From Acidobacteriota bacterium (GTDB taxonomy: Bacteria > Acidobacteriota > Blastocatellia > Pyrinomonadales > Pyrinomonadaceae): a stretch of 64,000 nt of DNA. Position numbers and translations under genes: made by a program. Below, one piece after another: positions 4,467 through 62,051 of this stretch. The notes beneath the pieces are model-generated. The model saw nothing but the letters and a program-made list of their open reading frames with translations, was not told the origin of the DNA and searched no databases. The stretch is from NCBI GenBank assembly GCA_029781855.1, contig JAKOVX010000060.1, forward strand, positions 48,405 through 112,404, written 5' to 3'. The first letter of the stretch is position 1, and every line of letters starts with the position of its first letter.

Positions 4467-5087
4467 ATGGCAAATGCCAGACAACGAGCAAAGAAGAGAG
4501 CAGCGAAAGCCGCCGCCGCGGCGCAGGCTAAAGCTGTCGCTCCATGTCCGCAGCCCACACCTGAAGAGATCGAGGCGGCACGCGTAGAAGCGGAATACAA
4601 CAAGATCTCACAGAATGGACACGCCGTTCAGCGGCACGGCGAAGCGATAACCCAACAGCAGCTGACCGATCGCGCGGTCAAAGGCCATGACCCCGTTACT
4701 GGTACAACGGACGACGCTTACAACAAGTATCCGAATGGAACACCTCGTCCGCATATGGCATCAAAGGACGCGACGAAATTTACTTCAAAGGCGGCGATGG
4801 TAAAGGCGGAAGAGGCTGTCCGCAGCAGCCAAAATTACAAAGACGAGTTAAAGAAGGCGAAAGACGACGGAAAGACAATGTTCGCGGTAAAAGGAACTAA
4901 ACTTGAAGACGCTCTCGGCGCTGATTACAAATCAAAGGTTGCCGGTGTCACCCGGCAAGGCTCCAAGAATAATCCAACGGGCAGTGCACCGACGGACTTC
5001 ACAGATGGAACTATTCGAGCCGTTTACAAGAAAGACGCGAGCGGGAATTGGAATCTGCATACGATGTTCCCCGAACCGAAGCCCTAA
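4467..5087 (+). CDS. Putative T6SS cargo toxin, possibly a bacterial RNase A-like (CdiA-CT RNase A type) nuclease
   Basis: 206 aa with a Lys/Ala-rich N-terminus. The GHAVQRHGEAITQQQLTDRA motif and the C-terminal HTMFP resemble the GH..RH ... T.Y pattern of bacterial RNase A-like toxins. The gene position (after vgrG-adaptor-PAAR, before a small acidic ORF) supports an effector role. Confidence 0.55.
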   Translation: MANARQRAKKRAAKAAAAAQAKAVAPCPQPTPEEIEAARVEAEYNKISQNGHAVQRHGEAITQQQLTDRAVKGHDPVTGTTDDAYNKYPNGTPRPHMASKDATKFTSKAAMVKAEEAVRSSQNYKDELKKAKDDGKTMFAVKGTKLEDALGADYKSKVAGVTRQGSKNNPTGSAPTDFTDGTIRAVYKKDASGNWNLHTMFPEPKP

Positions 5088-5095
5088 ATAAGTTT

Positions 5096-5386
5096 ATGGA
5101 AAAGAAGAGCATTTTGAAAGACGTACTGGAAACCTATTTCTGCCAGGGAGTGGAAATGTCATACGACGAACTGAACCAATTCCTAAAGAACGAGTCGTTT
5201 CCGGATCGGGCACGTACCTTCAAACGCGAGTTGGCTGACGCAATAATTAACCACAAGATCACGCCGGAAGATTTTCAGGATCTGACCGCCGTTGACCAGG
5301 ATTCACAGGAAGACGTGGATAAATTCCTGACTACCGAAATATGGGATCCTCTTTATGATAACGAGCCGGTGCGAATGATCTACTGA
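5096..5386 (+). CDS. Putative cognate immunity protein
   Basis: 96-aa acidic ORF starting 8 nt after the toxin stop. The ORF-track start at 5048 overlaps the toxin, so ATG 5096 is preferred. No signal peptide. The call rests on position. Confidence 0.5.
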   Translation: MEKKSILKDVLETYFCQGVEMSYDELNQFLKNESFPDRARTFKRELADAIINHKITPEDFQDLTAVDQDSQEDVDKFLTTEIWDPLYDNEPVRMIY

Positions 5387-5440
5387 TCCGTGTCCGCCGC
5401 TGATCGGCATACGAAGTTTTTTATACTCACGTAACGCCGA

Positions 5441-6847
5441 TCACGGATGCGTCATTTCCTCCGGTTTGACCAGTTCGTCAAACTCCTCGCCTTTCAATAT
5501 ACCGAGCACCATCGCTGCCTCACGGAGCGACATTTTGTTCTTGTGCGCGTATTTGGCGATCTTTGCAGCATTGTCGTAACCGACGTGTTGATTCAGGGCC
5601 GTCACGAGCATCAACGAGTCGTTGAGATAGTGATCGATCTTTTCGCGATTGAGCTCAATTCCGTCGATGCAATAATCGACGAATCCGTGACAAGCGTCGT
5701 GGATCAGCCGGACCGAATGCAGGAAATTGTGGATCATCACCGGCTTGAAGACGTTCAGCTCGAAATTTCCCTGCGATCCGGCAAAACCGATCGCCGCGTC
5801 GTTGCCAAAAACCTGCACCGCGACCATTGTCATCGCCTCTGACTGGGTCGGATTGACCTTTCCGGGCATTATCGAACTTCCGGGTTCGTTCTCCGGCAGC
5901 GAGATCTCGCCGATACCGCATCGCGGCCCTGATGCCAGCCAGCGGATATCATTCGCGATCTTCATAAGGCTGCCCGCAAGCGTCTTCAATGCTCCTGATG
6001 CAAAAACGACCTCGTCATGTGCCGATAGTGCGGCAAACTTGTCGGGATGTGACTTGAACGGCAGGCCGGTAATTTCGGCGATCTTGTCCGCGGCACGCTG
6101 TGCGAATTCCGGATGTGCGTTTAGCCCGGTTCCGACCGCGGTTCCGCCGATCGCCAGATCAAGCAATCCCGGCAGAACAAGCCGCAGCCTCTCGATATCG
6201 CGTTCAACAAGGCTCGCCCAGCCGCCGAATTCCTGCCCGACCGTCATTGGCGTCGCATCCTGAAGGTGGGTCCGACCGATCTTTACAACATCGGCGAATT
6301 CCTTTGCCTTGGCGTCGATCGCGTCATGGACCTTTTGGACCTCAGGGATCAACGCAGTGAGGCGTTCGGCAGCCGCAATGTACATCGCGGTCGGAAACGT
6401 GTCGTTCGACGACTGAGATTTATTGACGTCATCGTTCGGATGGATCGGCGACTTCGAGCCCATCACGCCGTCGACCATCTCGATCGCTCGGTTCGAGATG
6501 ACCTCGTTCGCATTCATGTTGGTCTGTGTACCCGAGCCCGTCTGCCAAACTCGCAACGGGAAATGGGCGTCGAGCTTGCCTTCGATCACCTCGTCAGCGG
6601 CTTTCACGATCAGGTCTTTTTTGTTCTCAGGCAATTTCCCGAGGTCGTAATTGACGATCGCCGCGGCCTTCTTCAGGATTCCCAACGCGCGGATCACCTC
6701 ACGCGGCATCACATCAAATCCGATGTTGAAATGCTTCAGCGAACGCTGCGTTTGCGCTCCCCAATAGGCTGTCACCGGCACTTCGATCTCGCCCATCGAA
6801 TCCGTTTCGATTCTTGTGTTCATTGATTTTTCTGTTGCTTCCGCCAT
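5441..6847 (-). CDS. fumC: Class II fumarate hydratase
   Basis: [20 protein letters not shown] signature and fumarase-length alignment. Start trimmed to MAEATEK (ATG complement of 6845-6847, AAGG upstream). The longer ORF start at 6991 would overlap the upstream gene. Confidence 0.93.
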
Positions 6848-8214: not shown

Positions 8215-9102
8215 CTAAGGCCGTCGTCCCCGTCCGGGGCCGTTGCCCATGCGTCCTTCGCTGCAGCGGGTAAATGCGGGCAGATGATTGTCTCGTGAAG
8301 CGCTCTGCAAAAGAGTAAACACTTCTTTGATATCCGCTTCCTTTACGAATCCGAGAAACCCATCATAAAGCGCGATGTTTTCCTTTTCTGCCGCAACGCC
8401 CGTTGCGCAAGCCTCAGTTAGCGAGTCAGGCACTGAGATCTTGCTCGAATCGAATTCATTCTTGGGCACGTTCACACCATACTTGGCGAACAGCGGCAAC
8501 AGATATGATTCGTGACGCTGCTCCGCCCCGACAATGTTCGAGAACGGTCGGGCGTCGGGGAATTTCTTGAGAACTGCCTCGTACGTAGCCTGCGCCCTCC
8601 GCTCGTCCTCAAGTGCCGAGAGCAGGGCTTTTTCGGTTTTCTCGTCAAGCTTTCCGGATGACCTAGGGGCCGTTGAAGACGCGTCTGCCATCGGCAATCC
8701 AGCAGCTTTCCAGGCGACGGTGCCGCCGGTTACGTTCAGAACATTGTTGAAACCAGCGTCCTTAAGGATCACAGCCGCCTTTCTCGAACGGTTGCCGGTT
8801 TGGCAGATCAAATAAACAGGCTCGTTCTTTTCAAGCCGATCGAGGCTCGAGCCGATCGTATCTAGCGGTATATTCACCGCGCGGTCGGCATGGCCTGCCG
8901 AATATTCCTCCGGTGTCCGGACATCGATAAATTGAGAGTAAGCCTTGGAAACGGCAGCTTCTGCATCAGCCGGCGAAACTTCCTTGATCTCCGTAGCCAC
9001 GTTCGGAACACCCGAATCCGTCGTTGAAATCGCCGCCCTTTGGCAGCCGCTGAATAACATCAATATCGTCGTCAGTATTACTAATAATTTCATGACCTTC
9101 AC
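8215..9102 (-). CDS. Lipoprotein with a rhodanese domain fused to a DUF2202 (ferritin-like) domain
   Basis: Lipobox LFSGC. Rhodanese active-site loop CQTGNRSRKAA. The C-terminal ALEDERRAQATYEAVLKKF...NIVGAEQRHESYL matches the DUF2202 pattern. Confidence 0.75.
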   Translation of the reverse strand: MKVMKLLVILTTILMLFSGCQRAAISTTDSGVPNVATEIKEVSPADAEAAVSKAYSQFIDVRTPEEYSAGHADRAVNIPLDTIGSSLDRLEKNEPVYLICQTGNRSRKAAVILKDAGFNNVLNVTGGTVAWKAAGLPMADASSTAPRSSGKLDEKTEKALLSALEDERRAQATYEAVLKKFPDARPFSNIVGAEQRHESYLLPLFAKYGVNVPKNEFDSSKISVPDSLTEACATGVAAEKENIALYDGFLGFVKEADIKEVFTLLQSASRDNHLPAFTRCSEGRMGNGPGRGRRP

Positions 9103-37920: not shown

Positions 37921-37993
37921 GCTTTCCTTTGCTCCTTTGCGGCTTGGGGGGGGAAATGATCTCCCGCAAAGACGCTAAGACGCAAAGGAAAGC
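37921..37993. repeat. Long imperfect hairpin of the CTTTGCG/CGCAAAG family (copy 2)
   Basis: gctttcctttgctcctttgcgg ... ccgcaaagacgctaagacgcaaaggaaagc. Confidence 0.75.
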
Positions 37994-38071
37994 GTTATTT
38001 AGTCAAAATGAGGCGTGAGCGGATCGAGGCGGCGAGGGCTTAGGGAGCATTTGTCATTTACCGCATTCTTC

Positions 38072-38137
38072 TTCCCTTTGCTGCTTTGCGGCTTGGCGGG
38101 AAAGATCTCCCCCGCAAAGACGCTAAGACGCGAAGGC
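38072..38137. repeat. Long imperfect hairpin of the CTTTGCG/CGCAAAG family (copy 3, tandem to copy 2)
   Basis: ttccctttgctgctttgcgg ... ccgcaaagacgctaagacgcgaagg. The preceding tcatttacc motif is also shared with copy 2. Confidence 0.75.
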
Positions 38138-38828: not shown

Positions 38829-39221
38829 TCACGAGGCGGTCAGGCGGACTCGGATCCAAGCAGCGAGGGATTGCTCGGTCATTTTCCCGGCTGCGAGGTC
38901 CATAATTGCGAAATATTTTTCTTCGGGTTGGGCGGCGATATCGCGGCCGTTGAGGATGAGAAAGGTTCGCATCGCGACGAGGCCGGTGCGTTTGTTGCCA
39001 TCGAGAAAAGGGTGGTTCTTTACGATGCCAAAGGCGTACGCGGCGGCAAGCGTGGCGATGTCGGCATCTTCAGAATAAGCGGCTTGATTTTGGGCTTTGG
39101 CGAGAGCGGATTCGAGCAGGCCGAGGTCGCGGATGCCATCCTCACCGCCGTGCTCGGCGATCTGGAGACGATGGATCGCAAGCACCGCCCGCAAAGAGAG
39201 CCATCGAATCTCGGCTGTCAT
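38829..39221 (-). CDS. doc: Doc (death-on-curing) Fic-family toxin
   Basis: HPFLDGNKRTG Fic/Doc motif in a 130-aa protein. It overlaps the upstream antitoxin gene by 4 nt. Confidence 0.9.
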   Translation of the reverse strand: MTAEIRWLSLRAVLAIHRLQIAEHGGEDGIRDLGLLESALAKAQNQAAYSEDADIATLAAAYAFGIVKNHPFLDGNKRTGLVAMRTFLILNGRDIAAQPEEKYFAIMDLAAGKMTEQSLAAWIRVRLTAS

Positions 39222-39445
39222 TCGGCCAGCTTACGCAATACGTCGCGGTCCTCGCGCATCACTCGCTGCGCGATCTCGATCTGAGCAGCAAAATCGGGGT
39301 CATACGGCGTCAGCTCGATACCGTTCGGCGTCTCAAGAGCGTAAAGCGTGTCGCCCTTGCCGACGCGGAGAGTCTCAAGAAGCTCCTTCGGCAAAACAAC
39401 TCCGGCTGAGTTCCCCACCGTTGTGATTTTAAGGGTCGTCGTCAT
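39218..39445 (-). CDS. AbrB/MazE/SpoVT-type antitoxin (Phd functional analogue)
   Basis: LKITTVGNSAGVVLPKELLETL swapped-hairpin motif. Start trimmed to MTTTLK. Confidence 0.8.
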   Translation of the reverse strand: MTTTLKITTVGNSAGVVLPKELLETLRVGKGDTLYALETPNGIELTPYDPDFAAQIEIAQRVMREDRDVLRKLAE

Positions 39446-39477
39446 ACCTGCATTATAACAAATGTTATAACAGTGAA

Positions 39478-41175
39478 TCAAGAACAATAAACGCGAAAGT
39501 CGATCTCGGCGAAGATGTTGTCGCGGGATTCGATCTCGTGGAGGAGGTCGAGTTGGTCGGGTGAGAGAACCACCCCGTCAGCGGAAGCCGCTGCCACCCC
39601 TCCTTCGTAAGGAGGGGAGCCTGAGCCAAGCATCTCCGCGAGGAGGTTGAAGCGCTGGATGTGGGATTGGAAGCGGTTGGACGAGTATTCGACCGTGGTG
39701 CCCTGATAGATCTGGAACGCCCAGTCGGAGGATTGGGCGAGGAGGAGTTCGCGGGCCATCTGGTTGAGGATACGCGACGCGGGGAGAACCACCCCGTCAT
39801 CCGCAGCGGATGCCACCCCTCCTTCGTAAGGAGGGGAGCTTTTGAAACGGTTCGCAAGCTCGGTCATGCGGCGTTCGGCGTCGTGCTGGTACGGGTACAT
39901 CCACGAGTTGCCCTCGTTGAGCCAGACCTTGTAATAGCCGTTCTCGCCCCACGACGAGGCGGTCGGCTGCTGGATCTGGATGGGCAGGCGCGAGTCAAGA
40001 AAATCGCCGGGCGTGATGCATTCGATCTGGTCCTGGTCGAAGTGTATCTTCTTAAAGAAAAAATCGATGAACTGCGGCCCCTCAAACCACCAGTGGCCGT
40101 AAAGCTCTGCGTCGTAAGGAGATACGACGAGCGGCGGGTGCCCGCCGAAGGTCTCGCGCAGCTTATGTGCCTGCTGGATGCGCTCGCCGATAAAGTGCAT
40201 TGCGTTCTCGGCGGCCTTTTCGCGGGCGGCGTTGGGGTCGTATGGCGCCTTGTGCTGCTGCGGCACGTCGCGGCCGGTGATGCGGTGGTATTTCAGCCCG
40301 AGGTGACGGCGGCTGCCGTCGGCGTGCAGGTGCGGCCGGAGATAATCGAGGGGGGCATCCCACCCGATATCGCGGTAAAATTCGCGGTAATTTACGTCAC
40401 CGGGATAACCGCTCTCTGCCGACCACACCTGCTGGCTGGTATCGACGTCGCGGGCAAAGACGGCAGTGCCGTTGGGGCAAACGACCGGCGCATGAACGCC
40501 GAACCGGGGCCGCGGATCGCCGTAAAGTATGGCGTGGGTGTCGGAGATGAAATACTCGATGCCGGCGTCTTCAAGCAGCGATTCGACGCCGGGCTCGTAC
40601 GCGCATTCCGCAAGCCAGATGCCGCGGGGCTGGCGGTGGAAATGCTTTTTATAGTTGGCGACGGCGATCTGCACCTGTGCCCGGCGTGCCTCGTGCGTCG
40701 AGATGAGCGGCATAAAGCCGTGGGTCGCGCAGCAGGTGATGATCTCGATGACGCCCTCGTCCTGCAGCTCGCGGAAGGCGTTGATCAGGTTGCGGCCGTA
40801 GCGGTCATTCCACAGGCCGAGCGACGCCGAGAGGTTGTCGACGTACATTTTCGCGACGCCGTGAAACTCCATCGCCTCGCGCGATGTGCGGTCGAGCTCT
40901 TTGCGTGCGAGTTCGAGGAGGTTCTCAAGATGGCGCGTGTAGCGTTCCTGCAGGAGTGGGTCGGCGAGCATCTCGCAGAGCGGCGGCGAGATGTTCATCG
41001 CGAGCCGCGGCTTCATCCCGGCCTCGTGCAGGGACTGGAAAATGAAAATGAGCGGAAGATAGACCTCCGTGATCGCCTCGTACAGCCAATCTTCCTCTAA
41101 AAACTCAGGATACTCGGGGTGACGCACGAAAGGCAGGTGCGCATGGAGGATGAGACTGAAATAACCGAGGGGCAT
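39478..41175 (-). CDS. GH57-family 1,4-alpha-glucan branching enzyme
   Basis: N-terminal LILHAHLPFVRHPE, WLAECAYEPG and the GH57 catalytic region. The C-terminal DUF1957-like helical domain carries two repeat-encoded inserts. Confidence 0.9.
   Translation of the reverse strand: MPLGYFSLILHAHLPFVRHPEYPEFLEEDWLYEAITEVYLPLIFIFQSLHEAGMKPRLAMNISPPLCEMLADPLLQERYTRHLENLLELARKELDRTSREAMEFHGVAKMYVDNLSASLGLWNDRYGRNLINAFRELQDEGVIEIITCCATHGFMPLISTHEARRAQVQIAVANYKKHFHRQPRGIWLAECAYEPGVESLLEDAGIEYFISDTHAILYGDPRPRFGVHAPVVCPNGTAVFARDVDTSQQVWSAESGYPGDVNYREFYRDIGWDAPLDYLRPHLHADGSRRHLGLKYHRITGRDVPQQHKAPYDPNAAREKAAENAMHFIGERIQQAHKLRETFGGHPPLVVSPYDAELYGHWWFEGPQFIDFFFKKIHFDQDQIECITPGDFLDSRLPIQIQQPTASSWGENGYYKVWLNEGNSWMYPYQHDAERRMTELANRFKSSPPYEGGVASAADDGVVLPASRILNQMARELLLAQSSDWAFQIYQGTTVEYSSNRFQSHIQRFNLLAEMLGSGSPPYEGGVAAASADGVVLSPDQLDLLHEIESRDNIFAEIDFRVYCS
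39565..39620 (-). repeat. 56-nt double-hairpin element inside the GH57 CDS (copy A, encodes GSPPYEGGVAAASADGVVLS)
   Basis: Hairpin CAGCGG-aag-CCGCTG at 39579-39593 and hairpin CCCCTCCTT-cgt-AAGGAGGGG at 39597-39617. Confidence 0.8.
39784..39839 (-). repeat. 56-nt double-hairpin element inside the GH57 CDS (copy B, encodes SSPPYEGGVASAADDGVVLP)
   Basis: Hairpin CATCCG-cag-CGGATG at 39798-39812 (stem differs from copy A but stays complementary). Identical CCCCTCCTT-cgt-AAGGAGGGG at 39816-39836. Offset from copy A is 219 nt (73 codons). Confidence 0.8.
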
Positions 41176-47882: not shown

Positions 47883-50800
47883 ATGAAAGATATCTTGGGT
47901 TTGTGCCGCATGCGGCGCCGTTCCGTTCATGCGTACCTTTTGTTGGTCGTGATTTGCGTGCTCGCTTTCCTGAACTCGACCGCAGACGCTCAATTGACGC
48001 TCAACACGTCATTTAATGCGGGCGTGACTGACGGTAATTCGATCGCTGTGGTCACGGCTGTTCAAACTGACGGCAAGATTCTTGTCGGCGGAAATTTTGC
48101 GTTTGCGAATGGAACTGAGAAATTCGGCTTGGTACGGCTCAATTCCGACGGCTCGCTCGATAACACTTTCAATGTCGGCGGCCTTGGACCGAACGGCATC
48201 GTTTATGAGATCAAGGTGCTTGGCGACGGCAAGATCATCATCGGCGGCGGATTCGGCACTTATAACGGGACCACCATACAGGGGCTGGCACGCCTGAATT
48301 CGAATGGAACGCTTGATACGACGTTCAACGTCGGCGGAGTCGGTGTTCAGGGCGGCGTGCAGGGAATATCGATCCAGGCAGACGGCAAATATATATTGAC
48401 CGGCGGATTATCAGCGTACAACGGCACGGCAAAATTTTCGGTGATCAGAGTCAACACGGACGGCACGCTCGACACCACATTTACTTCGCCATTTACGAAC
48501 CAGGTGTTTGTTGAGCAATCCGGCCTGCAGTCAGACGGTAAGATCATTATCGGCGGTCAATTTGCGACGGGTGCGTACAACAATTTGGCCCGGCTCACCA
48601 CGACCGGCGCACTTGACACTACTTTTAACGCAGGTAGTGCGGGTTCCAACGGTCCGATATTTCAAACACAAGTTCTCGCTGACAACAAGATCCTATTGGG
48701 CGGCCCTTACAACATGATAAACGGAACGGCTCGGCCCGGTTTGGCACGCCTTAACGCAGACGGGACGGTCGACGCGACCTTCACGCCATTGCCAACTGAT
48801 TTCTACAGTCCGGAATATGTGGCGGTAAAGCCAAACGGTCAATATGTATACGCCGGGGACTTTTCCAACAATGCCGGGAATTATCCGATAGCGCTGATCA
48901 ACCCGGATGGTTCACTCGACGGTACGTTTGGCAGGCCGGAAGCCGACAACATCGGTTATCAAGTGACACTCCAGACTGACGGGAAGATCCTGCTGGCCGG
49001 GTATTTTAACAACGTCGAGGTATTGGGCGGGCTGACGCACCGCAATCTGGTCAGGCTAAACGCAAACGGATCGGTCGATAGTACATTCGTCAGTCCGTTC
49101 AGCTCATTTGGCGGTATCGGCCCCGGAGCAATGCTGCAGCAGCCGGACGGCAAATTTGTCGTTGCGGGCAACTTCAACTCCGCAAACGGCGTGACGCACC
49201 GCAATATTGCACGATTCAATGCCGACGGCACGATAGACGCAACGTTCGACTCCGGATATGGCATCTTTGGGAATGGTAATGTTCGAATAGATGCTCTTGC
49301 TGTGCAAACGGATGGAAAGATCCTGATGGGCGGTACTTTTTCAACATATAACCTGAACGATGCTCGAAGCCTTGTCAGGCTGAATACGAACGGCACCCAG
49401 GACACGACATTCAACCCGATCGGAATTTCCGCCGGAGTCCCAGCCGTAAACGATCTATTGGTATTGCCAGACAACAAAATATTAGTAGGCGGCTCGGGCC
49501 TTGACATCGGCATTCAGGCCCTCGTGCGCCTAAACTCGAACGGAACAGGCGATCCGACATTCGCGGCCGGAAACAGCAATGGCCCCGTGCAGCGGATACT
49601 ACGTCAGTCTGATGGCAAATTGATCGTTTTCGGTAGTTTTACGTCTTATCTGGGCGGTACACGAAACCGGATCGTTCGACTTAACGCGGACGGCACGCTT
49701 GATGGAACATTTAACCCTGGAACCGGCGCAAACAACCAGATCCTCTCCGCCGAGTTTCAGCCGGACGGAAAGATCGTGATCGGAGGGGTTTTTACGAGTT
49801 ACAACGGAACGACCCGAAACCGGATCGCCCGGCTGAACTCCGACGGTTCGCTCGACACGACATTCAACCCGGTCTCCGGAGCAAACCAAACTGTCACGTC
49901 GATCGTCGTGCTGGCGGATGGCAAATTCGTCATTGGCGGCAACTTTTCGACTTACGACGGCACAACCCGCATGAGACTCGCCAAGTTAAATGCGGACGGT
50001 ACGCTCGACACCTCCGCCGACTCGGGTATTGAGAACAATTTCCGATTCGGCACCCGGAGGCTCCTGCGTACGGCGGACGGCCAGGTGCTCCTCGGCGGGA
50101 CGTTCGTGAATTACGGCGGTGTGCCGCGAAATAGTCTGGCAAAGCTCAAAGTTACGCGAAGCTCAGCGGTGTTGGATTTTGACGGCGACGGCAAGACGGA
50201 CCTGTCGATCTTCCGTCCGAACGGGGCGACGGGTTCTGAGTGGTGGTATTTGAAGTCTTCGAACGGCGGGAATTTTGCGACGCAGTTCGGGTCGCCGACG
50301 GATAAGTTGGTGGCGGCGGATTACACGGGTGACGGCAAGGCTGATATTGCGTTCTTCAGGCCGAGCACCGGGTTCTGGTACATCTTGAGGAGCGAAGACT
50401 CTTCGTTCTACGCGTTCCCGTTTGGAGCGAATGGCGACATTCCGGCTCCTGCGGACTTTGACGGTGACGGCAAGGCGGATGCTGCCGTTTTCAGGCCTTC
50501 GACGGCGACCTGGTTCATCCAGAACTCCGGCGGCGGGACGACCATCCAGGCGTTCGGAGCGGCGGGTGATGTTCCGGTGGTGGGTGACTACGACGGCGAC
50601 GGCAAGGCCGACATTGCGATCTTTCGCCCGAACGGCACGACAGGCTCCGAATGGTGGATCCTCAGAAGCACTGCCGGATTGATCGCGACGCAATTCGGGA
50701 CGCCGACCGACAAGACAGTTCCCGGTGACTACACCGGAGACGGCAAGGCCGATGTCGCGATCTGGCGGCCGTCCAACGGGCAATGGTACATCCTCCGGAG

Positions 50801-51008
50801 CGAGGACCTCTCGTTCTACGCGTTCCCATTCGGAGCGAACGGCGACATTCCCGTTCCCGGCGACTACGACGGCGACGGCAAGACCGACGCCGCGGTATTC
50901 CGCCCGTCAAGCTCAACCTGGTTCGCCCAGGGCTCGACCTCCGGCACCATCATCCAGCAATTCGGTGCAGCAGGCGACGTGCCTGTGCCGAGTGAGTTTG
51001 TCAGATAG
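47883..51008 (+). CDS. Large secreted protein: about 13-14 delta-60-type repeats fused to a C-terminal FG-GAP/VCBS repeat module
   Basis: Signal peptide. Repeated RLN.DG.LD.TFN motif about every 55-60 aa. The C-terminal 277 aa consist of DYDGDGKAD..FRP-type repeats. Confidence 0.8.
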   Translation: MKDILGLCRMRRRSVHAYLLLVVICVLAFLNSTADAQLTLNTSFNAGVTDGNSIAVVTAVQTDGKILVGGNFAFANGTEKFGLVRLNSDGSLDNTFNVGGLGPNGIVYEIKVLGDGKIIIGGGFGTYNGTTIQGLARLNSNGTLDTTFNVGGVGVQGGVQGISIQADGKYILTGGLSAYNGTAKFSVIRVNTDGTLDTTFTSPFTNQVFVEQSGLQSDGKIIIGGQFATGAYNNLARLTTTGALDTTFNAGSAGSNGPIFQTQVLADNKILLGGPYNMINGTARPGLARLNADGTVDATFTPLPTDFYSPEYVAVKPNGQYVYAGDFSNNAGNYPIALINPDGSLDGTFGRPEADNIGYQVTLQTDGKILLAGYFNNVEVLGGLTHRNLVRLNANGSVDSTFVSPFSSFGGIGPGAMLQQPDGKFVVAGNFNSANGVTHRNIARFNADGTIDATFDSGYGIFGNGNVRIDALAVQTDGKILMGGTFSTYNLNDARSLVRLNTNGTQDTTFNPIGISAGVPAVNDLLVLPDNKILVGGSGLDIGIQALVRLNSNGTGDPTFAAGNSNGPVQRILRQSDGKLIVFGSFTSYLGGTRNRIVRLNADGTLDGTFNPGTGANNQILSAEFQPDGKIVIGGVFTSYNGTTRNRIARLNSDGSLDTTFNPVSGANQTVTSIVVLADGKFVIGGNFSTYDGTTRMRLAKLNADGTLDTSADSGIENNFRFGTRRLLRTADGQVLLGGTFVNYGGVPRNSLAKLKVTRSSAVLDFDGDGKTDLSIFRPNGATGSEWWYLKSSNGGNFATQFGSPTDKLVAADYTGDGKADIAFFRPSTGFWYILRSEDSSFYAFPFGANGDIPAPADFDGDGKADAAVFRPSTATWFIQNSGGGTTIQAFGAAGDVPVVGDYDGDGKADIAIFRPNGTTGSEWWILRSTAGLIATQFGTPTDKTVPGDYTGDGKADVAIWRPSNGQWYILRSEDLSFYAFPFGANGDIPVPGDYDGDGKTDAAVFRPSSSTWFAQGSTSGTIIQQFGAAGDVPVPSEFVR
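50175..51008 (+). repeat. 834-bp direct repeat, copy 1 (FG-GAP module)
   Basis: Collinear with 61218-62051 without indels. About 9 aa differences in 277, with many synonymous differences. Confidence 0.85.
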
Positions 51009-56714: not shown

Positions 56715-59120
56715 ATGAGAGTGAGGTTGAGTTTTACATTTCCGGCGATATTTTTGCTTTTCTTTTTCTCTACTTTTGCAGTTTATTCACAGACAACCGA
56801 GTTCAATTATCAGGGCAATCTGAAGGACGGAGCTAACGCGGCGAACGGAAATTATGATTTCGAGTTCGCGTTGTTCGATGCGTTGACGGCAGGCACGCAA
56901 TTAGGTGCGACGCTCTCGCGGCCGGGTGTGGCGGTCGCGGGCGGGACGTTCGCGGTCAAGCTCGATTTCGGCAGCCAGTTCCCGGGAGCGAACCGCTTCC
57001 TCGAGATCCACGTCCGGACAGCGGGCGGCGGTTCATTTACGGTGCTCTCGCCGCGACAGCCGGTCAGCAACTCGCCGTATTCGGTGAAAGCCCTGAACGC
57101 CGATGCCGCAACAACCGCGGGCAGCGCCCTAAACGCTACTACCGCGACCACGGCGACGACGGCGACCAACGCCACCCAACTTGGGGGCGTTGCCGCAAGC
57201 CAGTACGTGCTGACGACCGATCCGCGAATGAGCGATGCTCGGACGCCGTTGTCAGGCAGTACGAGTTATATTCAAAATACGACGAACGCTCAGGCGAACA
57301 GCAATTTCAACATCAGCGGCGTTGGCACGGTCGGCAGCCTGCTGACGGCGAACACCGTTAATTCGGACACGCAGTATCTGCTCAATAGTTACCGGATACT
57401 TGGCAACGCCGGTACGCAAAACCTCTTTGCGGGTCAGCTCGCGGGCGTGCTCAACACCGGTGCCCAAAATTCGTTTTTCGGATCGAACGCCGCCTCGGCT
57501 AACGTAGCCGGAAGTTCGAATTCGGTCTTCGGCGCGGTCGCCGGTCTGTTCAATACGAGCGGCTCGAGCAACTCGTTCTTCGGTGCCGGCGTGGGCAACA
57601 CGAATACGACGGGCAGCAATGATTCTTTGTTCGGGGCTGGAGCAGACGTCGGCTCGGCCGCATTGAACTACGCGACGGCGATCGGCTCCGGTGCTGTAGC
57701 CACCGCAAGCAACCAGATCATGCTCGGACGGGCGAACGGGTTCGACACCGTGCAGATCCCCGGAGCCCTCAATGCCGGTACGCTCAACGCCGCGACGCAA
57801 TTCAATATCAGCGGCAACCGCGTCTTGAGCATTTCCAGCAGCGATCTATTCGTCGGTATCGGGACCGGCAGTGCGAATACGACCGGGCTCGCGAACTCAT
57901 TCTTCGGCTCGGCTGCCGGTGTGTCAAACACTTCGGGCGGAGCCAACTCATTCTTTGGGAATTTGGCGGGTAACGCGAACACGACGGGCAATAACAACTC
58001 ATTTTTCGGCCGTGGAGCGGGTGCCTCGAACACTGTGGGACTCACCAATTCTTTCTTTGGCGACCTTGCAGGTAACGCAAACACGACTGGCGGGAGCAAC
58101 TCGTTCTTCGGCCAAAGCGCAGGATCGCTTAACACGACTGGCGGCAACAACTCGTTCTTTGGCCAGGCAGCAGGTTTCTCGAACGCGACCGGTAGCAACA
58201 ACGCGGCTCTCGGTTCAGGTGCCGATCTCGGCGCCGCCGGTTTGAACTACGCGACGGCGATCGGCTCCGGAGCCGTAGCCACCGCAAGCAACCAGATCAT
58301 GCTCGGGCGGGCGAACGGTTCGGATACCGTACAGGTGCCTGGCAATCTCAACGCCGCCATCGTTAATGCCGCCACCCAGTTCAACCTCGGCGGCGTCCGA
58401 GCGTTTAGTATCGAAGGAACATCAAATGTGTTTGTTGGTGGCGACACGGGAACGGCTCTAGGTGGTGGACATGGCAACACGTTCGTGGGCACATCTGCCG
58501 GCAACACGAATAACGGAGGCATTTCAAATTCATTCGTCGGCGTAGGTGCCGGTGGCGTTAACAGTATCGGTTCCTGGAATACATTCTTCGGGGCACAGGC
58601 CGGTGTATCAAATACAACAGGCAGCAACAATACCGCTCTCGGTGAATTTTCGGGGCCCGCAACCGGCAATCTTTCAAATACGACCGCTGTTGGTGCTGGT
58701 GCCAGCGTGACGACGAGCAATTCGGTGGTGCTCGGCAATAACGCCAATGTCGGGATCGGCACGACCGCACCGGCGTTCAAGCTGCAGGTCGTCGATGCGT
58801 CGAATACGGGATTGCGGGTGCAGACGAACACGGCGGGCGGGACGGTCGGATCGTTCGGGGCGAACGGGGCGTTCAATGTTGACGCGTCCGGCGTCGCGGG
58901 CGGCAGGTTCACGGTGCTCGAGAACGGCAACACGGGCATCGGCACCAATGCACCGACGAATGCGAAATTGCAGGTCAACGGCCGGATCCGCGTCGTCAGC
59001 GGCGATGTTTTCATAACGAATCCGAACACGTTGATCATCACGTCGCCGAACGGTGCGTGCTGGGGCATCACTGTCAATAATTCGGGTGCGCTGTCGACAT
59101 TTTCGACCGCTTGTCCGTAA
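56715..59120 (+). CDS. Secreted repeat protein: tail-fibre-like N-terminal module plus long NSFFG/NTTG (YadA-head-like) repeat region
   Basis: Signal peptide and AGGAGG RBS. The N-terminal approx. 100 aa are homologous to the next gene. There are more than 15 repeats of the type [GS]xNSFFGxxAGxxNTTG. Confidence 0.7.
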   Translation: MRVRLSFTFPAIFLLFFFSTFAVYSQTTEFNYQGNLKDGANAANGNYDFEFALFDALTAGTQLGATLSRPGVAVAGGTFAVKLDFGSQFPGANRFLEIHVRTAGGGSFTVLSPRQPVSNSPYSVKALNADAATTAGSALNATTATTATTATNATQLGGVAASQYVLTTDPRMSDARTPLSGSTSYIQNTTNAQANSNFNISGVGTVGSLLTANTVNSDTQYLLNSYRILGNAGTQNLFAGQLAGVLNTGAQNSFFGSNAASANVAGSSNSVFGAVAGLFNTSGSSNSFFGAGVGNTNTTGSNDSLFGAGADVGSAALNYATAIGSGAVATASNQIMLGRANGFDTVQIPGALNAGTLNAATQFNISGNRVLSISSSDLFVGIGTGSANTTGLANSFFGSAAGVSNTSGGANSFFGNLAGNANTTGNNNSFFGRGAGASNTVGLTNSFFGDLAGNANTTGGSNSFFGQSAGSLNTTGGNNSFFGQAAGFSNATGSNNAALGSGADLGAAGLNYATAIGSGAVATASNQIMLGRANGSDTVQVPGNLNAAIVNAATQFNLGGVRAFSIEGTSNVFVGGDTGTALGGGHGNTFVGTSAGNTNNGGISNSFVGVGAGGVNSIGSWNTFFGAQAGVSNTTGSNNTALGEFSGPATGNLSNTTAVGAGASVTTSNSVVLGNNANVGIGTTAPAFKLQVVDASNTGLRVQTNTAGGTVGSFGANGAFNVDASGVAGGRFTVLENGNTGIGTNAPTNAKLQVNGRIRVVSGDVFITNPNTLIITSPNGACWGITVNNSGALSTFSTACP

Positions 59121-60947: not shown

Positions 60948-62051
60948 ATGATACGAGAGGCATTTCGAATATTGTCGGCAGCGGCTGTCGTTGTTGTTGC
61001 TTTTGGTGGGGCAGCGGCCCAGTCAGGCGGTACGTTTACGATCACTAAATCGGTGATCGCGGGCGGCGGCGGGCGGACTACGGGCGGGACATACACGGTC
61101 GATTCGACGATCGGCGAATCGGTCGCCGGGACGACGTCGAATGGTGGCACGTTCAGCCTGACGAGCGGCTTCTGGGGAGGCGGAACGACAACGAACGCGG
61201 TCCGTAGAACCTTCCTCGATTTCGACGGCGACGGCAAGACGGACCTGTCGATCTTCCGGCCGAACGGAGCGACTGGTTCGGAGTGGTGGTATCTGAAGTC
61301 TTCGAACGGCGGGAATTTTGCGACTCAGTTCGGGTCGCCGACTGATAAGCTTGTGGCGGCCGATTATACCGGTGACGGAAAGGCGGACATCGCTTTCTGG
61401 CGGCCGTCGACCGGCGAATGGTTCATTCTGCGAAGCGAGGACTCGTCGTTCTATGCGTTCCCGTTCGGCGGGAGCGGCGACATTCCGGCTCCGGCCGACT
61501 TTGACGGCGACGGCAAGGCGGATGCTGCCGTTTTCCGGCCTTCGACGGCAACCTGGTTCATCCAGAACTCGGGCGGCGGGACGACCATACAGGCGTTCGG
61601 AGCGGCGGGTGACGTTCCGGTCGTGGGAGACTACGACGGCGATGGTAAGGCCGACATTGCGATCTTCCGTCCGAACGGTGCGACCGGTTCCGAATGGTGG
61701 ATCCTCAGAAGCACTGCCGGTCTGATCGCGACGCAGTTCGGGACACCGACCGACAAGACGGTTCCCGGTGACTACACGGGCGACGGCAAGACTGACATCG
61801 CGATCTGGCGGCCTTCTAACGGGCAGTGGTACATCCTCAGGAGCGAAGACCTCTCGTTCTACGCGTTCCCGTTCGGAGCGAATGGCGACATTCCTGTTCC
61901 CGGCGACTACGACGGTGACGGCAAGGCAGACGCCGCGGTCTTCCGCCCGTCAAGCTCGACCTGGTTCGCCCAGGGATCGACCTCCGGCACCATCATCCAG
62001 CAATTCGGTGCCGCCGGAGACGTGCCCGTGCCGAGTGAGTTTGTGCGATAG
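60948..62051 (+). CDS. Secreted FG-GAP/VCBS repeat protein (C-terminal 277 aa nearly identical to the end of 47883-51008)
   Basis: GGAGG RBS and signal peptide, then a Gly/Thr-rich approx. 60-aa region followed by the FG-GAP module. Start trimmed to MIREAF. Confidence 0.75.
   Translation: MIREAFRILSAAAVVVVAFGGAAAQSGGTFTITKSVIAGGGGRTTGGTYTVDSTIGESVAGTTSNGGTFSLTSGFWGGGTTTNAVRRTFLDFDGDGKTDLSIFRPNGATGSEWWYLKSSNGGNFATQFGSPTDKLVAADYTGDGKADIAFWRPSTGEWFILRSEDSSFYAFPFGGSGDIPAPADFDGDGKADAAVFRPSTATWFIQNSGGGTTIQAFGAAGDVPVVGDYDGDGKADIAIFRPNGATGSEWWILRSTAGLIATQFGTPTDKTVPGDYTGDGKTDIAIWRPSNGQWYILRSEDLSFYAFPFGANGDIPVPGDYDGDGKADAAVFRPSSSTWFAQGSTSGTIIQQFGAAGDVPVPSEFVR
61218..62051 (+). repeat. 834-bp direct repeat, copy 2 (FG-GAP module)
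   Basis: See copy 1 at 50175-51008. Similarity begins at the first DFDGDGK codon and ends at the stop codon. Confidence 0.85.

Follow-up and report, generated by a model that had tools for sequence, protein, structure and literature searches.

A hairpin-bridged, putatively triplex-forming repeat dispersed in Acidobacteriota and translated within a GH57 gene

The locus described here is a 64,000-nt stretch (the window) of contig JAKOVX010000060.1 from a member of the Pyrinomonadaceae (Acidobacteriota; assembly GCA_029781855.1), in which two copies of a short palindromic repeat lie in frame inside a gene for a GH57 glycoside hydrolase with a C-terminal branching-enzyme domain (GH57/BE_C). The open reading frame (ORF) matches PF03065 (E = 2.5e-43) and, at residues 431-563, PF09210, a profile of 101 positions, leaving about 32 extra residues; its product is 100% identical to protein P0001 and aligns with the solved structure PDB 2b5d (E = 1e-144). 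Copy A occupies insertion site 2 (residues S520-L537, peptide SPPYEGGVAAASADGVVL) and copy B insertion site 1 (S447-L464, SPPYEGGVASAADDGVVL), confirming an earlier sequence-only reading of two same-orientation copies, 219 nt (73 codons) apart and both translated as part of the enzyme (window repeat family D14; 56 nt, 91% identical). That reading took the repeat for a 56-nt unit of two hairpins that differs between copies in the first stem only. The double hairpin is indeed the predicted fold, on both strands, and the second hairpin has the same sequence in both copies, but the conserved unit is about 60 nt (AGAGAACC...GGGGAGCTTT), includes a third part that had been missed (a 5' flank mirroring an arm of hairpin 2), and differs between copies at five bases, four in the hairpin-1 stem (two compensated pairs) and one in its loop (AAG vs CAG). 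In the window the core 21-mer (CCCCTCCTTCGTAAGGAGGGG) is found twice, and in 100 shuffles not at all. An ORF with PLLTKEGW-type peptides (39465-39857), previously called antisense, lies on the same (-) strand as the gene, in a different frame.

Both copies are lineage-specific insertions in inter-helix loops of the C-terminal domain. Close homologues share 76-100% identity, some being named Pyrinomonadaceae, Blastocatellia or Acidobacteria; they range from 539 to 590 amino acids, and their C-terminal length variation falls entirely at the two element sites. More distant orthologues (55-75% identity) have short loops at both sites (for example, ANRF-EHPDEMQR-RVL at site 1 and MLESGEVDHELL at site 2), and the solved GH57 structures 2b5d and 5wu7 show gaps at both insert positions. 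Across 40 anchored orthologous metagenome loci, site 1 was short in 19 and site 2 in 26. An AlphaFold2 model (mean predicted local distance difference test score 66.6, moderate only, with low confidence within the inserts) placed the site-1 insert between helices 426-443 and 466-489 and the site-2 insert between helices 494-517 and 539-551, in line with the suggestion of the sequence-only reading that the inserts fall at variable linkers of a C-terminal helical domain. At site 2, the window element is present in many orthologues, down to about 78% protein identity; at site 1, it is restricted to the closest five (P0001, 2, 3, 21 and 22). Orthologue comparison defined neither a target-site duplication nor an exact insertion boundary at the GH57 sites, because close relatives carry other inserts there and insert-free orthologues are too diverged. 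The two loops are repeat-insertion hot spots: in relatives they hold other inserts, with perfect stems rarer than 5% of shuffles in 11 of the 25 expanded loops (several of 12-21 bp) and at least four other repeat types. Among the palindromic families found there, in loci L120-L145 (equivalent to window positions 39547-39640 and 39770-39860), one reads GTTCAAAGTTCAAAG...CTTTGAACTTTGAAC and encodes the peptide FKVQSS..TLNLEL, with further families reading GTCCAAAGTCCAAAG..., GTAAGAGTGACG...CGTCACTCTTAC (GFSRS..KGVTL) and GAGAATTGAGAAT....

Beyond the window, the element is a family dispersed in Pyrinomonadaceae/Chloracidobacterium-type Acidobacteriota. A scan for the core 21-mer, with one genome per species, gave 119 loci; this is a lower bound, and the family counts that follow refer to the matches listed. 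The exact 21-mer matched at least 138 times in the window and these loci, and at least 72 copies (window included), almost all from Acidobacteriota metagenome-assembled genomes (MAGs), combined the exact core with the flank AACCACNCC, in intergenic spacers as well as in ORFs. A census was taken of the 68 of these 72 that have a linker of at least 10 nt between flank and core. Core copies split into two classes. Class 1, to which the window element belongs, consists of AGAGAACCACCCC, GTC, a variable hairpin, GCCA, hairpin 2 and then AGCTTT, and comes almost only from Acidobacteriota MAGs (Pyrinomonadaceae, Chloracidobacterium and Blastocatellia); class 2, in which AACCTCCCC plus 3 nt stand directly 5' of the same hairpin, is drawn from many other phyla. 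Each of the six viral-contig matches to the 21-mer (IMG/VR; L205-L210) is a full class-1 element, with at least four copies in L210, so that predicted phages or prophages of these hosts carry the repeat. [quoted passage not shown]

Roughly half of the censused class-1 copies (about 34 of 68) lie within ORFs of at least 200 amino acids. Pfam domains, mostly spanning or flanking the insert, were found in 19 of 20 scanned host ORFs, which include Mfd, ValS, aminopeptidase N, three acyl-CoA synthetases, a P-type ATPase and PriA, as well as an Orn/DAP decarboxylase, a peptidase S58 and an asparaginase; two or three copies are present in several of the hosts, frequently arranged as head-to-head doublets. 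Translation of the consensus with a 20-nt linker is stop-free in four of six frames. Real genes use only two reading modes, the window frame (SPPYEGGVAAASADGVVL) and, in opposite orientation, that of the form with an 18-nt linker (ENHPVGETPPPLLRKEGS), and both give Gly/Pro/Ser/Ala/acidic peptides, as would be expected if harmless insertions were the only ones to survive. An exhaustive peptide search returned only 21 of 1.84 billion cluster representatives, many of them short ORFs spanning tandem copies, which makes for no usable census of host families. Some proteins (P0121, P0129, P0135 and P0140) contain translated tandem arrays of two or three copies, one of them pseudouridine synthase-like (three copies) and another ABC-F ATPase-like by eye; pseudouridine synthases are recurrent hosts of repetitive extragenic palindromes (REPs) and Rickettsia palindromic elements (RPEs) (PMC3733652). 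The hosts in L016, L045, L076, L083 and L092 also share another recurrent peptide (PPASAGG[TKQ]/PPATAGGTD/PPAVVGGA), presumably from another in-frame repeat family.

Across the family, the pairing of hairpin 1 is conserved rather than its sequence, as had been proposed from the two window copies alone. Every censused linker (68 of 68), over lengths of 12-35 nt, contains a perfect stem of 3-10 bp. Among 25 distinct copies with a 20-nt linker, both-sided changes occurred at four of the six hairpin-1 pairs (28 cells, with one G-U), giving a covariation score of 0.231, compared with 0.043 in shuffles; this score was reached by none of 500 shuffles and collapsed in slid controls. Wobble pairs are thus nearly absent, which points to a constraint at the DNA rather than the RNA level, or to palindrome-templated correction.

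The third part of the element follows a rule that extends well beyond the window sequence. In mirror image, the 5' flank AACCACCCC repeats the pyrimidine arm CCCCTCCTT of hairpin 2. Hairpins with an all-pyrimidine arm in the fetched loci comprised 43 distinct arm sequences, and 20 of these arm types had a perfect mirror flank separated by exactly 3 nt; over 2000 permutations such arm types averaged 0.6 and never exceeded 4. Where the arm has T, the opposite flank base was T in 62 cases and A in 74, and G or C in 5. Read on the other strand, the order is pyrimidine arm, loop, purine arm, 3 nt and a mirror segment of purine type, which is the rule for an antiparallel purine-motif triplex. The same arrangement defines the class II intrastrand triplex motif TMECO (BoxC of E. 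coli; CCCTCNCCC-N3-6-GGGNGAGGG-N3-GGGNGAGGG), present in 3610 copies across 262 proteobacterial genomes and folding as a triplex in vitro by circular dichroism and nuclear magnetic resonance (PMC4666352). On the minus strand, which is the purine-rich, triplex-competent strand of copy A and the sense strand of the gene, both window copies have the homopyrimidine 5' arm and homopurine 3' arm of about 9 nt with a loop within the 3-6-nt range of the class (CCCCTCCTT-ACG-AAGGAGGGG), and the third segment GGGGTGGTT mirrors the purine arm AAGGAGGGG at 9 of 9 positions. The linker, however, is 20 nt long in both copies (TGG-hairpin-GAC) and 12-35 nt family-wide, compared with a second loop of 3 nt in TMECO and 1-6 nt in the ITxF definition (PMC4666352), and the element is therefore a variant rather than a canonical member of class II. 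Two other readings of the mirrored flank were set aside: G-runs would permit a G-quadruplex in some variants, but this predicts neither mirror symmetry nor A/T-only degeneracy, and Watson-Crick pairing with a partner copy does not fit a flank that is the mirror of its own stem and lacks complementarity to that of the partner.

A candidate partner enzyme for these repeats emerged from their gene neighbourhoods. Loci L108 and L090 each have a small gene with the Pfam domain DUF559 (Vsr-like PD-(D/E)XK fold) between two inverted elements; the family has been placed together with Vsr and with the homing endonuclease of a group I intron (PMC3424549). When every ORF of the loci examined was searched with a profile, DUF559 turned up in six of the loci selected by the 21-mer, among them an Elusimicrobia MAG and a Gammaproteobacteria MAG, and in every case an element lay within 130 nt; the remaining profile matches are in loci fetched for their DUF559 gene. 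Among the latter, eight acidobacterial 10-kb loci (from at least two genomic neighbourhoods) had every class-1 match within about 260 nt of the DUF559 gene and no class-1 match away from it. In E. coli K-12, a TMECO copy lies about 165 nt downstream of ycjD, which is annotated as DUF559. In a DUF559-first sample from a plasmid collection (Neisseria, Sinorhizobium, Azospirillum, Sphingomonas, Synechocystis, Deinococcus, Klebsiella and PCC 7002), seven of eight loci had triplex motifs within 200 nt of the gene, often inverted on both sides, with 15 of 21 motifs in the 14% of sequence nearest to it (p = 5.5e-9); 548 kb of GH57-selected loci plus the window yielded no such motif. The motif sequences near DUF559 genes differ by taxon and all obey the mirror rule, and the association, by bracketing or adjacency, spans five phyla (Acidobacteriota, Alpha-/Beta-/Gammaproteobacteria, Cyanobacteria, Deinococcota and Elusimicrobia). 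This bracketing makes DUF559 a candidate partner of the triplex repeats. We found no literature linking DUF559 to BoxC or triplex motifs, although our coverage was incomplete and an earlier description is possible. Doublet spacers in L104 and L101 terminate in GCAAC(C)G, and DUF559 units (L212 and L108) have a similar sequence immediately interior to their right-hand copy, which hints that doublets may be deletion derivatives of such a unit.

Table 1. Positions of the repeat copies, their parts and the host gene in the window, and of DUF559 genes associated with triplex-type repeats in other loci.
Feature	Position	Strand	Remarks
Host gene, GH57 glycoside hydrolase with C-terminal branching-enzyme domain	39478-41175	-	Intact ORF, 565 amino acids
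Copy A of the repeat (site 2)	39564-39623	+	Covariance model 87.1 bits; shared by many orthologues
Copy A, putative third-strand segment AACCACCCC (minus strand GGGGTGGTT), mirroring the hairpin-2 arm	39568-39576	+	Mirror rule 9/9
Copy A, hairpin 1, CAGCGG-AAG-CCGCTG	39579-39593	+	Variable connector; CGTC before, CCA after
Copy A, hairpin 2, CCCCTCCTT-CGT-AAGGAGGGG	39597-39617	+	Homopyrimidine and homopurine arms
Copy B of the repeat (site 1)	39783-39842	+	Covariance model 86.5 bits
Copy B, putative third-strand segment AACCACCCC	39787-39795	+	Mirror rule
Copy B, hairpin 1, CATCCG-CAG-CGGATG	39798-39812	+	Two compensated pairs relative to copy A
Copy B, hairpin 2	39816-39836	+	Same sequence as in copy A
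DUF559 site, L108	6749-7338
DUF559 sites, L212-L219	around 4900-5660
DUF559 site, L026	5564-6025
DUF559 sites, L220-L227
DUF559 site, L211	1351203-1351760		E. coli K-12 NC_000913.3

We consider it probable, at roughly 70%, that the two GH57 segments are copies of a dispersed, non-coding, triplex-type DNA repeat that spread at the DNA level, with the peptide as a passenger. On the sense strand, the CCCCTCCTT arm, the ACG loop and the AAGGAGGGG arm are followed by the self-closing hairpin 1 and by GGGGTGGTT, which would lie antiparallel on the purine arm as the third strand of a purine-motif triplex (G on G-C, T on A-T); the element would thus be a motif of BoxC/TMECO type with the 3-nt second loop swapped for a stem-loop. 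Hairpin 1 would be free in sequence and length while its pairing is kept because the connector need only close on itself, a simple structural reason for compensatory change that does not require an RNA function. Copies would spread as DNA and survive within genes only where the host protein can accommodate about 20 more codons, translation meets no stop and the peptide is harmless, and the two GH57 copies may have settled in permissive inter-helix loops on these terms. More tentatively, and with less than even odds in our view, intrastrand-triplex repeats (BoxC/TMECO and the hairpin-bridged form) may be one ancient class of DNA elements, mobile or maintained, defined by their structure, with the DUF559 (YcjD-family) nuclease as dedicated partner, as REP-associated tyrosine transposases (RAYTs) are for REPs; in some lineages the class would have entered protein-coding genes on a large scale, with the GH57 copies among its products.

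Several observations weigh against this interpretation of the GH57 segments. A covariance model of family members, run unfiltered over the 64 kb, found only copies A and B, the next best match scoring 13.9 bits (8568-8631, + strand; E about 0.03; possibly chance or a decayed copy), and a profile search found no DUF559 gene within the window. We saw no transposition event, no target-site duplication and no presence/absence polymorphism, and the mobility of the element is inferred. The class-1 model gave 87 matches in 421 kb of class-1 loci, a density biased by the choice of loci for carrying the core 21-mer, and hairpin 2, which varies almost solely in its loop among these matches, is fixed by the search pattern and so carries no covariation evidence. 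Triplex folding has been demonstrated for TMECO with a 3-nt linker, compared with a 20-nt hairpin in the window element, so that a triplex in the hairpin-bridged form is predicted from the arrangement of its arms. Finally, the site-2 insert may be old, and its near-consensus state would then need in-place constraint or gene conversion, an upkeep for which a purely selfish model has no provision. That model is weakest here, which leaves some room for a role at the mRNA or host level.

The age of the site-2 insert is also where the most serious competing account applies, in which each lineage acquired an independent, recent insertion at a hot-spot site rather than inheriting one old, intact insertion. 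Between the window and L201 or L202, orthologous site-2 copies differ in hairpin 1 by compensated and wholly synonymous changes, the sole amino-acid changes (E to K or Q) falling on hairpin-2 loop nucleotides. The site-2 differences in hairpin 1 resemble those among unrelated family members, several other palindromic families have entered the same two loops, and in the P0003 orthologue a further insertion is nested within the element, all of which would suit repeated insertion. However, all site-2 carriers share insert boundaries and flanking codons (AGC...TCN CCC GAN CAA CTC GA), and copies in L204 and L120 are decayed, as expected of an inherited insert, so that we regard repeated insertion as unlikely, though by no means negligible.

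Alternatively, the inserts could be selected for a role of the GH57 message or its translation (ribosome pausing between helices or message stability), with the structure kept as RNA, which we judge improbable. RNA-parameter folding predicts strong hairpins (-25 to -32 kcal/mol), and element synonymous sites are more conserved than the remaining gene (17 of 17 third codon positions identical between the window and L200, compared with 65%), with changes compensated. However, the RNA z-scores are modest (-1.6 to -2.9), DNA-parameter folding (-16 to -19.9 kcal/mol) giving z = -4.0 to -4.7 with 0 of 200 shuffles folding as well; copies lie in both orientations within genes, and equally in intergenic spacers; a single G-U among 28 double changes in hairpin 1 is unlike RNA helices; and the A-or-T degeneracy of the mirror flank fits a DNA purine motif, not a pyrimidine RNA triplex. 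Rfam searches at permissive thresholds gave chance-level matches only (E ≥ 0.6), and an intrinsic-terminator scan called neither window copy; spacer copies in the family often end in AGCTTT or AGTTTT, and the GH57 mRNA is without a U-run after the hairpins of the window copies.

Less probable still is that the element is an ordinary REP or REPIN moved by a RAYT (Y1) transposase, with the polypurine hairpin and mirror flank structurally meaningless. The CGTC head and CCA tail on hairpin 1, like those of CGTC-tagged REPs, and the head-to-head dimers with a recurrent 37-nt spacer speak for such an origin, but CGTC REPs are themselves without a known transposase (PMC3733652), the only Y1_Tnp gene seen (L215, 2883-3293) is not flanked by element copies, the genes bracketed by repeats are DUF559 and not RAYT, and the mirror rule holds across many unrelated arm sequences. 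A protein-level module, in which a duplicated peptide was selected for enzyme function and DNA palindromy is incidental, is largely refuted: although SPPYEGGVAAASADGVVL is well conserved at site 2 in many GH57 orthologues, this DNA is also found in spacers and within genes for unrelated proteins, where it is read in two orientations and frames, amino-acid changes fall exactly at loop nucleotides with stems invariant or compensated, relatives hold different inserts in the same loops (11 of 25 with the rare stems noted above), and the peptide reached only those 21 cluster representatives.

The window contains other repeats and genes. Two copies of an imperfect palindrome, CTTTGC...GGGGGGGAAATGATCTCCCGCAAAGACGCTAAGACGCAAAGG (37921-37993 and 38063-38136; families D19 and I2), belong to a distinct repeat family and lie in the spacer that separates the inositol-1-phosphate synthase gene from the ORF next to it. 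Two paralogous stretches of a 135-144-nt tandem coding repeat (50174-50906 and 61217-61970), some 11 kb from each other and sharing 85% identity over 300 nt, have the motif D-x-D-G-D-G-K-x-D ... F-R-P, FG-GAP/VCBS-like by eye, and a further repeat-rich ORF spans 57519-58642. Immediately downstream of the GH57 gene (38829-39487, - strand) are genes for a Fic/Doc toxin (PF02661) and for an antitoxin of MazE/AbrB type (PF04014) whose ORF, as listed, overlaps the GH57 stop codon by 10 nt.

Among known systems, the element is close in architecture to intrastrand triplex motifs (Hoyne et al. 2000; Holder et al. 2015, PMC4666352), with which it shares a pyrimidine and a purine arm of 9 nt each, joined by a loop of 3-6 nt and followed by a mirrored segment placing G on G-C and A or T on A-T, as well as dispersed, highly conserved copies, often in inverted pairs. 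Short-linker elements in other phyla fit the published pattern exactly. The window family differs in its second loop, a self-paired hairpin of 12-35 nt instead of 3 nt, and the published finder would miss it because it takes loops of 1-6 nt. TMECO was reported to be always intergenic in E. coli K-12, with its function and any link to mobile elements reported as unknown (PMC4666352), whereas the window family belongs to Acidobacteriota and is often found in genes and translated.

The precedent invoked in the sequence-only reading, the Rickettsia palindromic element (Ogata et al. 2000, via PMC10969869), is apt in kind: about half of the copies lie in frame in unrelated housekeeping genes, at permissive protein positions and sometimes twice per gene, and the host proteins are retained, as we find for the palindromic repeat here. 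We treat the window element as an RPE analogue only, since it is far shorter than RPE-1 and comes from another phylum (RPE-1 is about 100-150 nt and its lineage obligately intracellular, compared with about 60 nt, a mirror segment and a free-living soil lineage). Nor is Rickettsia the sole precedent, with in-frame REPs, some two per ORF, documented in Opitutus, Thauera, Rickettsia and others, in hosts including tRNA synthetases and repair proteins (PMC3733652); the general phenomenon is therefore not new. CGTC-tagged REPs, a superfamily that includes RPE-4 and RPE-6 and for which no transposase is known (PMC3733652), are alike in the CGTC before and CCA after hairpin 1 and in their common head-to-head dimers. 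Their stem, however, is 8-9 bp, starting with A-T pairs, with a loop of 4-5 nt, compared with 6 bp (3-10 in the family) and 3 nt here; both sequences can be read in the window at 39576-39579 (CGTC) and 39594-39596 (CCA), but the final C of the former pairs with G39593, and short-linker family members have CGCC or CGGC in its place. In addition, the window hairpin is a linker within a larger unit, and Acidobacteria are absent from the listed CGTC phyla (PMC3733652). REP-RAYT units (REPtrons) and REPINs offer a parallel in organization, a small nuclease-type gene between inverted repeats together with many solitary and doublet copies, the bracketed gene here being DUF559 rather than a Y1 transposase and known from its sequence.

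What is new here is a hairpin-bridged variant of the intrastrand triplex motif that is also an RPE-like intragenic palindrome. A triplex-type repeat is thus seen translated, and two separate literatures, on intragenic REP/RPE-type palindromes and on intrastrand triplex motifs, meet in one element. In-frame colonisation of genes by palindromes is extended to free-living soil Acidobacteriota, where it looks frequent because several repeat families have occupied the same two GH57 loops. How BoxC/TMECO and CGTC repeats are propagated and maintained was left open in both source papers, and the bracketing of DUF559 genes, together with the motif near ycjD, makes this question testable in E. coli.

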